64,000 nucleotides of DNA from Escherichia coli O157:H7 (GTDB lineage: Bacteria > Pseudomonadota > Gammaproteobacteria > Enterobacterales > Enterobacteriaceae): the NCBI RefSeq assembly GCF_013167455.1, contig NZ_CP038328.1. One strand, given 5' to 3'. Within the stretch, counting starts at the first letter, position 1. Every line of letters starts with the position of its first letter. The position numbers are program-made. Positions 6,001 through 12,000 of this stretch are shown one piece after another.

Positions 6001-9000
6001 TTTCACCCCTGTACTTCGTGCCCCGTAAAGGATCTTCTTTTTTCTGGTCAATCCCCATATCTTTAAGCGTTCTGGTCGCTGCTGCCCTGACGGCGCATAC
6101 ATGCCCCCACTCTGTTGTTTTTGGTCTGGTGGCTTTTGCCGTGCATTGCGCCCTTCGTTGGGTAATATAGTGCCTCTCTTCATCAGTTTTTGCCTGTCTG
6201 AACAATTCTCCCCAGCGTTCAGCAGCACGCCGCCAGAGGCCGCTATTCTCCAGCGCTTCAGCCTTGTCATCACGTATCATCTGTACCCCGCCGATTCTGT
6301 CCTTTCAAAATTTGTCTTATGGCTTATTGTATGAGGGATTCATCCTACAACAAGAAAGGTCACTATGAGACTGACGCAATACAAAAAAGAGATCCTCAGT
6401 TACTTCACTCCCGACAATCTGGCGTGGGTTACTGCCGAAATTGGCAGTCCGCCGTTTGATGTCTCCGGTGTGGCTTACCTGCTGCATGGTATGGATTCAT
6501 TCAACAGCCGGTATCAGATCGAATCAACAAGGCGCACGCTGGAAGCTATGGTGCGTGATGGTCTTCTTGAGCGGATTAATGTGTATGAGCGTCGTGAGGG
6601 CGCTGGTGATGGTGTTCGTCGAAAGGTGGCGCGTTATGGCCTGCCTGGTCATTCTGTTGTGGTGCGTGACGGTGAGGGCCGGAACGGTGCAATTGACGGC
6701 GAATGTATACGCATCAATGCTACAGATGTGGTGCTGGTGGAGGGGCAATAAAAAACCCTGAAAGATTTCTCCGGGTGCTCCAGTTGCACGTGGCAGAAAT
6801 CCTTCAGGGTCAGCCGTAACGGGCCTCTGTACAGAGGGCTCCAGTTGCCCAGAGATGAGCACCCGCTACAGCCTGTTGTGATAAGCCGCTTTACAGTGAG
6901 CTCCAGTTGCTCAAAGAGGCGCGTTTTTATCACAACCTGACCGCGATAACCCGCTGTACAGAGGGCTTCAATTGCCCAAAGAGGCGCATTCTTATCGCGG
7001 CATGACGAAATCACCGTGATGTTTTCGTCGTTCACTCATCCCGATGTGTGGGAGATGCACCGGAATGAGTGCCGAAAAGCCGCTGGCTGGCTTCATGCAG
7101 TCGGACTCAGTTGCCCGGGGCGAACACCATCAACGGCCTTTTGGTGGTGATTATAGCGAATCGCGATAATTGAGCAAATACGGTGATGAGATGCGTATCA
7201 CGGTAGCGCTAAATCGTCGCCTGCATCACTGAAGCTGTAATTTCTCCATTCATCCTGCGGATTAATCCCCATCTCTTTCAGCGTTCTGTCTGCGGCCTTT
7301 TTCACATCGCCAAAGGTGACGAACTGCTCAGGCATACGACGGGTTTTACTGATGCATATCGCCCGACGTCTGGCAGCTTCCTCGCGTTCACTGTCCGTTT
7401 CTGCGTGAAGAAGAACCTCAGCCCATCGGGTCGCCGCACGTCGCCATAAACCGCGCTCCTCAAGTTTCTGTGCCACGCTGTCCGTCATCACTGGCTTTAC
7501 CTCCGGCTGATTACTGCTGACTGTTTTTCTGCTTCATCTGCTCCAGTCTCCGCTTCAGTAGTTCGCTGGCTACTGATTTATCTTCTTCCGTGACTTCACC
7601 GCAAGGTTGCCCGTTCAGTCCATACCGTGCGCCGCCAGCGACAATGGCTTTCAGGTATCGCGTCGTGTGGATGTATGAGGTTAATGCGCCACGTAATACG
7701 CCATGACCAATCGCCAGTTCCCGCGCCTTCGCGTCCTGCAACATATCGTGTATCACGCCAGCCTTAAGGGGTTTTATATTCTCTGCCCCAAACAGTTCAG
7801 GCCAGTACTCAGCCAGTCGGTTTATCCTCCTGCGGTTTTTTCGCTGCCGCTTTGTCATGTGCTGCCACGGTATGCGCCGTGATGGTTTACGTGTGGTCTG
7901 GTCCTGTTGTGTGGTCTGCTGGTTCATGTTGTGCTCCTGTCATTCAGAACGGAATATCGTCAGAGAACGGGTCATCACCTCCCGCTGGTGGCTGATTCCC
8001 CCGTGTTCCGGTCTGTCGTTTTGCTCTTTCCAGTGCTTCGGTCGCCTTCCCCTGTTGCCCCCGCTTCCCGCCAGGACGCGCCGAACGGGCACTGATTACG
8101 CTGTCAGCGATAACCTGCCAGCCCTGCCGTATTTCTCCGTTCTGTCCGGTCCACTGACTGATCTGCATGTTACCCGCCACGCTGATAAGGTCGCCTTTTT
8201 CATGTCTCGCCAGCGCGTCGGCCTGCTTACCAAATGCCAGGACTGATAGCCATAACGTCGCCTGTCCGTCCTGTGCCTGACTGCATGGCAAAGATACCGC
8301 CATACGCGCCAGCGTCATCGGTGTGCCCTTGCTGGTCTGTTTTACCTGCGGGTCGTCCACCAGCCGTCCGTAAGCTGCAATCTGTGCTGTCATGGTCTGC
8401 GCTCCTTGTTCCGGTACTCTTGGATAATACCCATTGTCATATCGAATAAATCACATGCCGCTTTTTCTGCATCTTCCGCTTTCAGGTCATACAGCGTCAT
8501 GAAATGGTAAGTGATCGCCCGTGCTGCTCTTTTGCTGTTTGCTGCATATTTCTCATAGATTTTTCCTGCCCGCTCTTCAATATCCCGTCGGAACTCTTCA
8601 CGTTCAAACAGGTCACGGTGTATCAACATCAGCGAATCATTCAGCCATGTCACATCGGCGTATACCGTTCGCTTCCAGACAATCAGGATCGGAAGTTTAT
8701 GTTTGTCGCAGTGATGCAGATGTTCGTCAGGTATATAAAGCGTGGCTCTGCCTCGTACCGATACGAACCTCACAACAGATTCCGGTTCGGTTAAATCGAT
8801 AGCGTGTGAATGTGATTTTTTGGCGTGTTTCTCTGTCATAAAATTTTTCTCAAAGGAATAAATAAAAATTTATGCCCAAAAGGTGTTCAACTGTTCACCT
8901 TTTGCTATTTCGCCTTTAGATTCATGAAGTTAAGGGGTGAACGCTTTTTGTAAAGGTGTTCACCAACTGTTCACCCTGCTCACCCGCGACTGTTCAAAAA

Positions 9001-12000
9001 TCATACAAAAAGGTGAACAGGTGAATACTTTGGTGAATAGTTTTACAAAAAGTGTTCACCCATTAACATATTGATACTAAATACATTTATTGCAGGGTGA
9101 ACAGTGGTGAACAGTTTTTCTATAACTTAATTTTTATCACCCTCATTTTTCACTGGTGCACATGACGGCAGCCAGTCCTCAGACTCATCCGTCAGTATCA
9201 CGTTTGATCGCACACCTTCTTTAGTTCTCTTTTTCATATACTCCCTGCCATATTCCGCCATTGCGCCTGGCATATCTGCACCGAAGCGCGTCAGTGTTAC
9301 GGGCTTACTGAAACCGTGCGCCCTCATATACGAGAGATAGGCGTGATAAAGATAACGGCGTGGACTGAAAGGAATAATCTCAGCATTACCGACTAACAGG
9401 CCGTCACACATTACCGACGACATGAGATAGCCGCAGAAGTCCACCAGCGAATCCCCCTCACGCTTTATCGCCAGTGCTTCTTCTGATTTCTGCTGCTCAT
9501 ATAAAAGGCGTCTGGCTTCGTCCTGATCAGCAAACCGTGTAAGCAGATGACGAATCACTACAGCAAGCTCACCTTCTATTTTTTCCGGCAGCATCGGATC
9601 GCGTTCGTTTTCCGGTACAACCTCCGAAAAATTGAATATCACACGACGACGTGAGATCCCCCCGCTGCGGTCACTGAATGACATGGCGCTGTTGTTAACC
9701 GCCAGCACAACCGCCGGAATACGCGTTGAGTATGGCGCTTTGTGTTTCGGGTCAATTGCCACCTTGTCACCGCCCGTAATGGCCTTTATCCCTGCACCAT
9801 CACCCGCGTAGCGGGTCATATCCGGCAGAATAATCAGTGAAAAGCCAACCACTAATGCGCGTTCCCTTGCATCCTCCAGTGCCTTCATGCTTGCCGATAC
9901 CGTGTTGGCCTTACCTGCCAGCATGGTACAAATCTCCGCCATAACACTTTTACCGCTTCCACCAGGACCTGTTACCTCAATGAATAACTGCCAGTCGTAC
10001 CGGTTCGCCAGCACCATAAATAACGCTGCCAGAACGCGATCTGCCTTGCGGTCATTCTCAGCCACCGAACGGCGCAACCATTTCCAGAAATTCGGCGCAT
10101 GTGTTGCCAGCGTTTCCCCCTCTGCTGGTGGGCTGAAAGGTAATTCACTGGCAATTAACAACCAGTCGTTTTTGTTATGCTCCCGAAAATTACCTGTTCT
10201 GGTATCAAATACCCCGTTACTGAATCCAATCAGGTTACGGGCTGTATTCCCCATTACAGGCAAACTTAACTTCATGGTATCGACCGCCGATTTAATGGCG
10301 TTCTGCGAATAGCTGATCTCCGCATCAATGAAAATCTGTGCCATAGCTCGCTGTAATTCTTTATCCTGTACTGGCTCCCATACAACGCCGTTGTAATGGT
10401 GAACAGTGTCAGAGTCAGCATGAATCGCCAGTTCACCGCCATAATGTGCCAGGAGAACTTCGCCGCGTTGACTTGCTCCCATCTGGTTAAGCGCTAGTGA
10501 TGAAGCGTTATCGTCTTTTACCCGCTCTTTTTTCTTTACAGGCAGTTCAACTACCTTTTTCTTTTCCGCCTGCTCTGCCCGTTCACGTTCCAGATATTCG
10601 CGCCAGTTCTCCCGTTTCTGGCTGTGCATTCCTTCAGGGTAATAATCAGCATCCCTGACACCTGCCACTGCCAGTTTCTGCCCGATGGTATTAACAAGCC
10701 CCGGACGCAATAACCCCGCCTGATAGAGACGCACGCGATAGCGTCCGTCCGGTACGATTTGCAGGTTGTCCAGTTCGGCAAGTTGTTGCTCTCCAAGCCA
10801 GACAGGTGGCACGTTATCGCCAGCCAGTCGCCCGTCCTGTTCCTGCCACTGCTTCGCATGTGCCCACGCATCACTGCCAGCGAAAATAATCACTTCCGTA
10901 TCGGCGTGTTTTTTCCCTCGAGGCTGTTTTTTTAAGTTCGGTGCGCTTTTCATTTCTTACCTCTGCTGATCATCGTCATGTGGCTACCGTATTCATTGCG
11001 GTAAATATCCCCGCACATAAATTCGGGGTGAGTTTTGCTACTGGCAGTTAAGCCAGTATTTTTTGATGCCATTGAATTAATCTCCTGAAGGAGTCGTCTT
11101 AATCCTTATTTCCCGTTTATTTTTAGCCGTTATTGTTCGCCGCGTTTTTCTTCCTCCGTCATTAACCACACCGCCACATTGCTGGAAAGTTGTTTGATAA
11201 GTCCTGCAATAACAGAAAGGTCATGGTCGTCTATTTCTTCGTGGTTGCGTTCAATCATGCGGCTGATTACTTCGACCTGTTGCGCTTGCAGTGAGGCTTC
11301 TGCCAGTGTTATTTGCTGCATTACTGCACCCCCTTAATTTCATGATATTCAGAACAACAAAGGATTCAGTCATTGACGCATATTGCATCATCACCCGATG
11401 CAGCAATCAGCCAGCTACCTGCCTTACCTGTAAGCTGCTTAATCAGGGCGAGCAATGACTCAATCTCACCCTCAGTCATTCCACCTGTGTTACCCATCAT
11501 CAGAGAACAAATAAGTTCTGCCTGCATTGCGCTTTTTGCTGCTTCATCAACAGTCATATCGGAAAAATCACACATGAATTACTCCTCATCCTGAATACAT
11601 GTAACTGCGTGGATAATTACGCCGGATAAACCGGCTTTAGCTGATTTGTTAATTACTGTGCTGATTGCAGCCTGGACGTTTTCGGCCTTCACGTTCTGTG
11701 TGATGCCGATGGTATGGCCGCGCTTGTTAACAGCACGGGAAAAGACGCGGAAGGTTTTAAGCATGAGTCACCTCCTGACGGATACGGGCGACAAAAATCA
11801 GATGTGCGTGCGGCAGCCGGGCGCGTGCTTCGCGCTCAGTGGCAGCGGTAACGGTGAATATTGCAATGCTGTCTGTCAGGCACTGCATAAAGCGCCAGAC
11901 AAAGTAAGGGCGTGCGGATACAGCCATGTGAAAGGCTCCTCTGACTTTGGGATTATACCCACCGCCCAAGAGGCCAATCTTGCTGGCGGTGGACTGTACG

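Follow-up and report, generated by a model that had tools for sequence, protein, structure and literature searches.

Closest described replicons and the locus analysed

Among Gram-negative phage-inducible chromosomal islands (PICIs), EcCICFT073's pri-rep-ori segment maintained a temperature-sensitive plasmid at the restrictive temperature, and deletion of pri or ori abolished or strongly reduced plasmid replication (PMC6092414). The EcCICFT073 primase and the 'Primase-Ori' pair have also provided base editors delivered by phage with a conditional replicon (PMC11338833), and both replication from pri-rep plus ori and induction by a helper phage were described for EcCICFT073 only (PMC6092414, PMC11338833). 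Two iteron sets flanking an A+T-rich region were given as a common feature of PICI origins (PMC6092414, Fig. 2a legend), and a further island, EcCIRM13514, was listed at yicC-dinD with the attachment (att) core GAGCAGATTCAA (Fillol-Salom et al. 2018, Table S1, PMC6092414). The locus analysed here lies within 64,000 nucleotides of the Escherichia coli O157:H7 contig NZ_CP038328.1 (assembly GCF_013167455.1), a stretch hereafter called the window, and consists of an alpha-like replication gene (pri-rep) coding for 608 amino acids (aa) and of the intergenic gap 8840-9126 that follows its stop codon.

The gap was identified, with a probability of about 85%, as the vegetative replication origin of a Gram-negative PICI at yicC-dinD. 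This reading was drawn from the statistics of an octamer cluster, the homology to satellite phage P4, the function of the homologous EcCICFT073 segment, a conserved layout and the co-variation of octamer and protein across relatives. The replicon belongs to the Gram-negative PICI pri-rep-ori replicons, a class already known and validated by experiment, and carries the classical P4 octamer; it is no new kind of system. An earlier note, made from the sequence alone, had proposed an autonomous replication module at this place. The module itself was supported by the protein and octamer homology and by plasmid replication from the EcCICFT073 pri-rep-ori, while 'autonomous' probably still means dependent on host priming.

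Octamer array and anatomy of the origin

The octamer TGTTCACC occurred in nine exact copies in the window (1.85 expected, at most 5 in 100 shuffles), and seven of the nine fell within 8892-9113. Five further sites in the same stretch, at 8884, 8936, 8977, 9020 and 9032, had one mismatch and brought the total to 12, while a 13th octamer with two mismatches, TGTTCAAA, stood at 8991-8998. From base composition, 0.007 exact copies were expected in 230 bp, so that the Poisson tail for at least seven was 1.7e-19 (about 1e-16 after correction for the number of windows). The stretch 8840-9126 is exactly the intergenic gap between the 608-aa open reading frame (ORF; 9127-10953, minus strand) and a 149-aa ORF (8390-8839, minus strand), and a scan for exact and one-mismatch sites gave no second cluster elsewhere in the island or the window. 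The count of about 13 octamers in the earlier note was therefore borne out, as was its description of direct and inverted copies within about 230 bp; the gap directly behind the stop codon at 9127 is filled by the array, as had been stated, and the A+T-rich stretch noted beside the octamers corresponds to the far end, 8840-8883 (77% A+T). The parts of the origin were as follows, none of them being assigned to a strand.

8840..9126, whole intergenic origin region, 287 bp, 35% G+C, from the pri-rep stop codon to the start of the next gene
9012..9113, half-origin A (proximal, P4-ori-like), six iterons
Iterons of half A: 9106-9113, 9096-9103, 9053-9060 (opposite orientation), 9032-9039, 9020-9027 and 9012-9019
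9061..9095, spacer A, 35 bp, 77% A+T
8985..9011, centre of the pseudo-palindrome, 27 bp, holding the degenerate octamer TGTTCAAA
8884..8984, half-origin B (distal, P4-crr-like), an inverted copy of half A, six iterons
Iterons of half B: 8977-8984, 8968-8975, 8957-8964, 8936-8943 (opposite orientation), 8892-8899 and 8884-8891
8900-8935, spacer B, 67% A+T, within half B
8840..8883, A+T-rich tail, 77% A+T, running into the start codon of the next gene and partly kept among relatives

Read in the direction of the gene, the sites start 14, 24, 67, 88, 100, 108, 143, 152, 163, 184, 228 and 236 bp after the stop codon, with the orientations > > < > > > < < < > < <. Alignment of half B with the reverse complement of half A scored 47.5 (shuffles, -4.5 +/- 4.3), and a repeat search returned inverted arms of 70 nt that were 74% complementary. 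The array is thus a conserved pseudo-palindrome in which a P4-ori-like half is joined to a P4-crr-like half, and not a loose cluster of sites. The origin gap 8840-9126 contained no DnaA box, no match to an Rfam RNA and no plausible small ORF.

Relation to the ori and crr of satellite phage P4

In the P4 record NC_001609, ori (9310-9413) and the two 120-bp crr repeats have octamers of the TGTTCACC type annotated as 'ori type 1 repeats', the crr repeats adjoining alpha just 3' of the gene, and the identification of the octamer with that of P4 ori and crr in the earlier note thus held. Binding of these octamers by P4 alpha is taken from the GenBank annotation, the PDB entry 1KA8 and the general background on P4; a full-text literature search for TGTTCACC gave 2139 matches, to unrelated primers. 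The stretch 9012-9113 has the layout of P4 ori: three sites, a 13-bp gap, an inverted site, a 35-bp A+T-rich spacer and two sites, with order, orientation and spacing equal to those of the six annotated type-1 repeats at P4 9310-9413. On the side of half B, window positions 8861-8945 aligned with the 120-bp P4 crr repeat. In the direction of the gene, P4 ori is oriented as half A and each crr repeat as half B. These alignments tie PICI origins to the classical P4 ori and crr by direct homology.

The locus therefore shares with P4 an identical octamer, an array 3' of the gene (as in crr), a helicase domain (62% identity) and an origin-binding domain (46%). It differs from P4 in that P4 ori and crr lie 4.7 kb apart and crr is duplicated, whereas the two halves in the window are fused head to head in a single contiguous array. 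A contiguous array 3' of the gene was also found for the alpha-type proteins of Xenorhabdus and Photorhabdus, which have the full primase domain. The simplest reading, which was drawn from layout and is not a phylogenetic test, would make the contiguous palindrome the common arrangement for this protein family and the split ori and crr of P4 a derived rearrangement. As a separate observation, a perfect DnaA-box consensus, TTATCCACA, was present at the edge of P4 crr (4282-4290 of the P4 locus, L003), and the window origin is without such a box.

Helicase and origin-binding domain of Pri-Rep

The gene and its parts most relevant to the origin were located as follows.

9127..10953, minus strand, pri-rep (alpha-like) gene, 608 aa: 132-aa N-terminal domain, D5_N, superfamily 3 (SF3) helicase and winged-helix origin-binding domain
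9946..9969, minus strand, Walker A motif GPGGSGKS of the SF3 helicase, residues 329-336, from the alignment of homologues
9166..9456, minus strand, winged-helix origin-binding domain, residues 500-596, the presumed octamer reader, from a phmmer match to PDB 1KA8

Pfam placed D5_N at residues 165-294, DUF5906 at 328-436 and Pox_D5 at 499-595, with an additional weak match to PPV_E1_C. In BLASTP, residues 148-598 were 50% identical to P4 alpha 320-771 (E = 3e-162), and the first ~320 residues of P4 alpha had no counterpart. The adjacent protein accordingly has the D5/P4-alpha-type NTPase domain that had been reported for it; of the domains proposed for a search of the 608-aa protein, D5_N was found and a Pfam primase domain was not. 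Residues 500-596 matched PDB 1KA8, the origin-binding winged helix of P4 alpha (phmmer E 1e-23). Residues 240-443 matched PDB 7OLA (molecule name 'DNA primase' in the PDB table), presumably the SaPI5 PriRep5 structure described in PMC9371898. Walker A and other helicase residues were invariant in the window protein, EcCICFT073, the virion-derived element vB_KppS-Ant and P4 alpha, with the exception of P330, which is D in EcCICFT073.

Identity differed from domain to domain. Against EcCICFT073 Pri-Rep it was 68% in the N-terminal domain, 54% in the helicase and 31% in the origin-binding domain, and against P4 alpha the N-terminal domain was unrelated while the other two domains had the identities given above. 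By this domain-wise measure the 608-aa protein is a mosaic.

Relation to catalogued and tested PICIs

The host element is a Gram-negative PICI at yicC-dinD and not a P4-type satellite. An integrase, an alpA-type regulator, co-oriented genes and a PICI-specific att site unused by prophages were all present, the last in a single copy, and two iteron sets stand around A+T-rich DNA as in PICI replicons. The P4 hijacking genes sid, delta and psu, by which P4 differs, were not annotated on the identical island in NC_013353. Pri-Rep was 91% identical to that of EcCIRM13514 overall and 100% identical from residue 241, and the two origin gaps were ~97% identical; judged by these identities, the island is closely akin to EcCIRM13514, a catalogued PICI, and counts as a variant of it. 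With EcCICFT073 Pri-Rep the identity was 49% over the full length, that protein (L005:10242-11996) being assumed to equal AAN79964 since EcCICFT073 has no other primase-family gene. The gap 3' of EcCICFT073 pri-rep was identical in layout throughout, with the octamer TGTCTACC.

The island resembles EcCICFT073 and EcCIRM13514 in the order of its genes (int, alpA-like, icd-like, pri-rep, ori, ssb, perC) and in having the origin in a ~288-bp gap 3' of pri-rep. In contrast to the tested EcCICFT073, the window has TGTTCACC instead of TGTCTACC, and the origin-binding domains share only the 31% identity given above. The window island also has extra DNA (IS2, a Q-like gene and YeeE/YedE) and only one detectable att core.

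Two further elements had the same arrangement. The virion-derived 16.5-kb element vB_KppS-Ant carried TGTTCACC in the same layout, and a 10,790-bp circular 'plasmid' record of an E. coli assembly (NZ_CP148328.1, L087) was a whole satellite of this type, with int, alpA, an icd-like gene, DUF4222, primase, a 77%-identical TGTTCACC origin, a capsid-protease fusion and a gene for tail assembly. The record probably represents a capsid-forming PICI that was caught as an episome after excision, and its circular form is consistent with an episomal life of such elements.

Octamer classes across Enterobacterales

A scan of one genome per species gave 80 loci encoding relatives, of which ~25 Enterobacterales loci were examined in detail. 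The 3' gaps of these ~25 loci aligned end to end, with sites at offsets near 16, 26, 69, 90, 101, 109, 153, 163, 184, 228 and 236 from the stop codon, and at least eight different octamers occupied them. The octamers were distributed as follows.

TGTTCACC: E. coli, Klebsiella, Raoultella, Kluyvera, Pluralibacter, Citrobacter and Pectobacterium, and 810-aa alpha-type proteins of Xenorhabdus and Photorhabdus
TCTCCACC: Yersinia, Rahnella, Edaphovirga and Erwinia
TGTCTACC: EcCICFT073 and Kluyvera georgiana
TGTCCGCC and TGTCCACC: Serratia
TATCTACC: one locus (L072)
TATACACC: one locus (L081)
GGTATACA/GTGTTCAT mix: two loci (L082 and L083)

In 11 distinct origins of the TGTTCACC class, the iteron columns were 87% identical and the spacers 67% (Mann-Whitney p = 3e-9), with the class consensus (A/C)(C/G)T(G/A)TTCACC. 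The helicase stayed ~90% identical while the origin-binding domain changed with the iteron class; in locus L019, for example, the helicase was 91% and the binding domain 65% identical, and the octamer differed. Differences between classes in the origin-binding domain were concentrated in the wing, after a conserved 'EY.K'. In all ten aligned proteins of the TGTTCACC class the wing had no gaps and contained TK (SK in Xenorhabdus and Photorhabdus), G and, at its end, [RQ][ST]N; the wings of the other classes had insertions or substitutions. The same layout with different octamers across Enterobacterales points to co-evolution of the protein and its site.

The two loci with mixed octamers (L082 and L083, from Lelliottia and an Escherichia sp.) encode near-identical Pri-Rep proteins and have GGTATACA and GTGTTCAT intermingled ~300 bp after the pri-rep stop codon. 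They had been considered as a natural experiment, near-identical proteins with different top octamers, and this was rejected since both origins mix both variants. The mixture may be a snapshot of a change of specificity in progress. The occurrence of eight or more octamers on one 230-bp scaffold, every octamer having a winged-helix variant of its own, provides a natural specificity series that could guide the design of orthogonal conditional replicons such as those used for phage-delivered base editors (PMC11338833).

N-terminal domain and priming

One domain of Pri-Rep has no counterpart in P4 alpha.

10558..10953, minus strand, satellite-specific N-terminal domain, residues 1-132, TOPRIM-like fold, no TOPRIM catalytic Glu or DxD

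The earlier note had described the N-terminal region as shorter than that of P4 alpha. The ~320 residues of P4 alpha, a zinc-binding and TOPRIM primase region, are indeed missing, but they are replaced by an unrelated 132-aa domain. BLASTP showed no similarity of this domain to P4 alpha 1-320, and hhalign gave a probability of 0.1% for a relation to the P4 alpha primase domain. Residues 1-132 matched no Pfam family and no Pfam primase domain, and the sole PHROG match was to a family of unknown function. A homologue search with the domain alone returned mostly gene fragments; an exhaustive search was more informative, with just 87 clusters among 1.84 billion representative proteins. Across satellites the domain was fused to four unrelated types of replicative NTPase (P4/SF3, Cch/DUF927-like, VapE and RepA-like). 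The AlphaFold model was confident (predicted local distance difference test score, pLDDT, 94) and showed a TOPRIM-like fold. The invariant residues of the family included no Asp and no conserved DxD, and by motif Ala25-Gly26 would occupy the position of the TOPRIM catalytic Glu-Gly.

The lack of the TOPRIM catalytic acidic residues suggests that priming is probably done by the host: the 608-aa Pri-Rep would not prime by itself, and host DnaG is the likely primer source. The N-terminal domain could be a TOPRIM that has lost catalysis and recruits host DnaG or a different factor of host or helper; alternatively, it could be a primase of unusually small size. Two linked proposals, put forward jointly and only tentatively, are that the domain is a new satellite-specific partner module of the helicase and that origins of PICIs and P4-like satellites are subject to cross-talk. 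The latter was suggested by the shared octamer, the 46%-identical origin-binding domain and the frequency of P4-like satellites in E. coli; if it is true, PICIs and P4-like satellites could activate one another's origins, compete for them or block them. In homologues from Pectobacterium, Serratia, Yersinia, Rahnella and Erwinia (L011-L025), the same core of helicase and origin-binding domain was joined to a third, unrelated N-terminal domain of ~140 aa ('MSDALFSCVYRWVNGHP...'), which had no PHROG match (for example at L011:3001-4332 and upstream).

Comparison with other replicons

The Reps of staphylococcal pathogenicity islands (SaPIs) are SF3/MCM-like helicases that load themselves and bind iterons just 3' of rep through a C-terminal winged helix (PMC9371898). 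These iterons flank an A+T-rich centre in opposite orientation, and loading of two hexamers was proposed (PMC9371898). The window locus is similar to SaPI Rep and PriRep in that a helicase bearing a C-terminal winged helix acts as initiator and the iterons lie 3' of its gene. It is different in that the iterons of SaPIs span 5-6 bp, the relationship between the proteins is only distant and the primase is a separate gene in most SaPIs. At the origins of SV40 large T and papillomavirus E1, palindromic short sites flank easily melted DNA and two opposed SF3 hexamers assemble; this is an analogy of mechanism only, as the DNA-binding domain differs in fold and position and the sites are unrelated in sequence. 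Like the iteron plasmids (pSC101, R6K, F and P1), the locus has repeated initiator sites beside A+T-rich DNA. Plasmid iterons are tandem direct repeats of 17-22 bp, used with a non-helicase Rep, DnaA boxes and DnaB/DnaC loading, whereas the window sites measure 8-10 bp and occur in both orientations, the helicase itself serves as initiator and a DnaA box is absent.

Proposed mechanism and alternative explanations

Upon induction, which in the sister island EcCICFT073 proceeds via AlpA and a helper phage, the island would make the 608-aa Pri-Rep, and its C-terminal winged helix would bind the 12-13 TGTTCACC-type octamers. With two inverted six-site halves, protein would collect on either side, and SF3 helicase hexamers would be loaded facing opposite ways. 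Spacer A (9061-9095) is the most likely site of first strand opening, being the counterpart of the A+T-rich stretch between the iteron sets in P4 ori and PICI origins (PMC6092414). Primers would probably come from host DnaG, and elongation would be by host Pol III with the help of the island single-stranded-DNA-binding protein (SSB).

Several observations weigh against an active PICI origin at 8840-9126 or against parts of this mechanism. Two of the 12 window sites are degenerate where EcCIRM13514 has perfect octamers. As to the transcriptional setting, simple scans found no terminator in 8840-9126, a T-run terminator included, and no sigma-70-like promoter on the minus (gene) strand of that gap. 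As to the primer source, no primase catalytic motif was recognisable in the 608-aa protein. A simple wing-residue code for the choice of octamer was rejected, as EcCICFT073 and L019 share TGTCTACC with different wings. The att core GAGCAGATTCAA was found once in the window (16523-16534, in the yicC end); a second copy was not found in the window, against two copies in EcCIRM13514. The dinD side (~350-5100) carried three features that EcCIRM13514 lacks: an IS2 pseudogene, a gene of the antiterminator-Q family and a gene for a YeeE/YedE transporter. With a single att core and foreign genes on the dinD side, this copy of the island may be rearranged and may have lost the ability to excise, and the origin may lie idle.

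This leads to the explanation that the array is a real binding array but an inactive relic, an origin that never fires in a decayed island without excision or induction. Besides the att core and the foreign genes, a truncated 'ash' annotation and a dinD-side junction that gave no alignment to that of EcCIRM13514 speak for it. It was nevertheless judged unlikely, because the pri-rep ORF is intact at 608 aa, int, the alpA-like gene and ssb are intact as well, all 12 sites are kept in register, and 62 E. coli records matched the 2.6-kb module at 99% identity or more; moreover, loss of excision alone would not stop an origin from firing in situ. A role mainly in control, with the octamers as operators for orf149-ssb-proQ or as copy-number and incompatibility sites (titration, handcuffing) as in iteron plasmids, would agree with an array that abuts the start codon of the next gene, with the lack of a terminator between pri-rep and that gene, and with P4 crr as a second, distant binding array. 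Iteron arrays in plasmids do have dual roles in initiation and control, and the two roles are not mutually exclusive. As the main function, control is nonetheless quite improbable: the strict pseudo-palindrome with its A+T-rich spacers is kept across clades with different downstream genes, and the homologous EcCICFT073 region is needed in cis for replication (PMC6092414).

The array immediately 3' of alpha in P4 is crr and not ori, so the window array could in principle be a crr-like cis enhancer only, with the true start (the ori1 equivalent) elsewhere in the island. This is very improbable given that half A reproduces the layout of P4 ori itself, that the island and window hold no other octamer cluster, and that cloned EcCICFT073 pri-rep with the adjacent gap was sufficient (PMC6092414). 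There is scarcely any likelihood that the inverted repeat acts in folded form, as a terminator, small RNA or single-strand initiation hairpin, rather than as duplex binding sites. Single-stranded 8880-9118 (239 nt) does fold as one long hairpin (-49.7 kcal/mol, z = -8.5), but this pairing follows from the two inverted halves. Across relatives it is the octamers in register that are kept and not the pairing, and octamers were swapped en bloc in both arms, as any binding-site palindrome would show; the arms are only 74% complementary, and neither an Rfam match nor a T-run terminator was found.

Distribution and island context

The origin gap was found in 113 of 5426 complete E. coli genomes, including many O157, O103, O111 and O145 strains; it was always chromosomal and annotated in none, so that an unannotated, functional-looking origin is now placed in these genomes. 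The 2.6-kb module was 100% identical in many chromosomes of Shiga-toxin-type E. coli (O103:H2 12009, O157:H7 and O111 included), and at lower identity it was present in 1253 of the 5426 genomes.

Gene content was taken from the RefSeq annotation of the identical island in NC_013353, with families checked by PHROG and NCBIfam. The co-oriented order was integrase, AlpA-like helix-turn-helix, AntA/AntB, Icd-like, 'DNA primase family', the gap, an unknown ORF, ssb, ProQ/FinO and three PerC-family genes; int, the alpA-like gene, the icd-like gene, pri-rep and ssb were all on the minus strand.

7944..8393, minus strand, island SSB gene (ssb), TIGR00621 above cutoff, phrog_44, two genes downstream of the origin
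13810..14025, minus strand, AlpA-like helix-turn-helix regulator/excisionase, phrog_66 (excisionase and transcriptional regulator), helix-turn-helix regulator in RefSeq
15059..16321, minus strand, tyrosine integrase, phrog_1

The ssb gene occupies the same position in EcCICFT073 and EcCIRM13514, and the island SSB is likely an accessory of the replicon. The 149-aa ORF (8390-8839, minus strand), which starts at the end of the origin, had no NCBIfam or PHROG match, and EcCICFT073 has a different small ORF at this position.

Two RNA families scored above the Rfam gathering score on the minus strand of the window, C4 antisense RNA (RF01695, 73.8 bits, 11982-12069) and isrK (RF01394, 52.1 bits, 12096-12172), together with a weak c4-a1b1 target. 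The stretch 11982-12172 is directly upstream of the Icd-like gene, and RefSeq has a truncated 'ash family protein' pseudogene at the position of C4. In its arrangement the stretch resembles an antisense-RNA immunity module of the P1/P4 type, situated within the PICI. The three PerC-family regulator genes of the island lie on the minus strand at 5809-6280 and 7198-7488, and some PICI-borne PerC homologues activate the locus of enterocyte effacement (LEE) pathogenicity island (PMC6092414).

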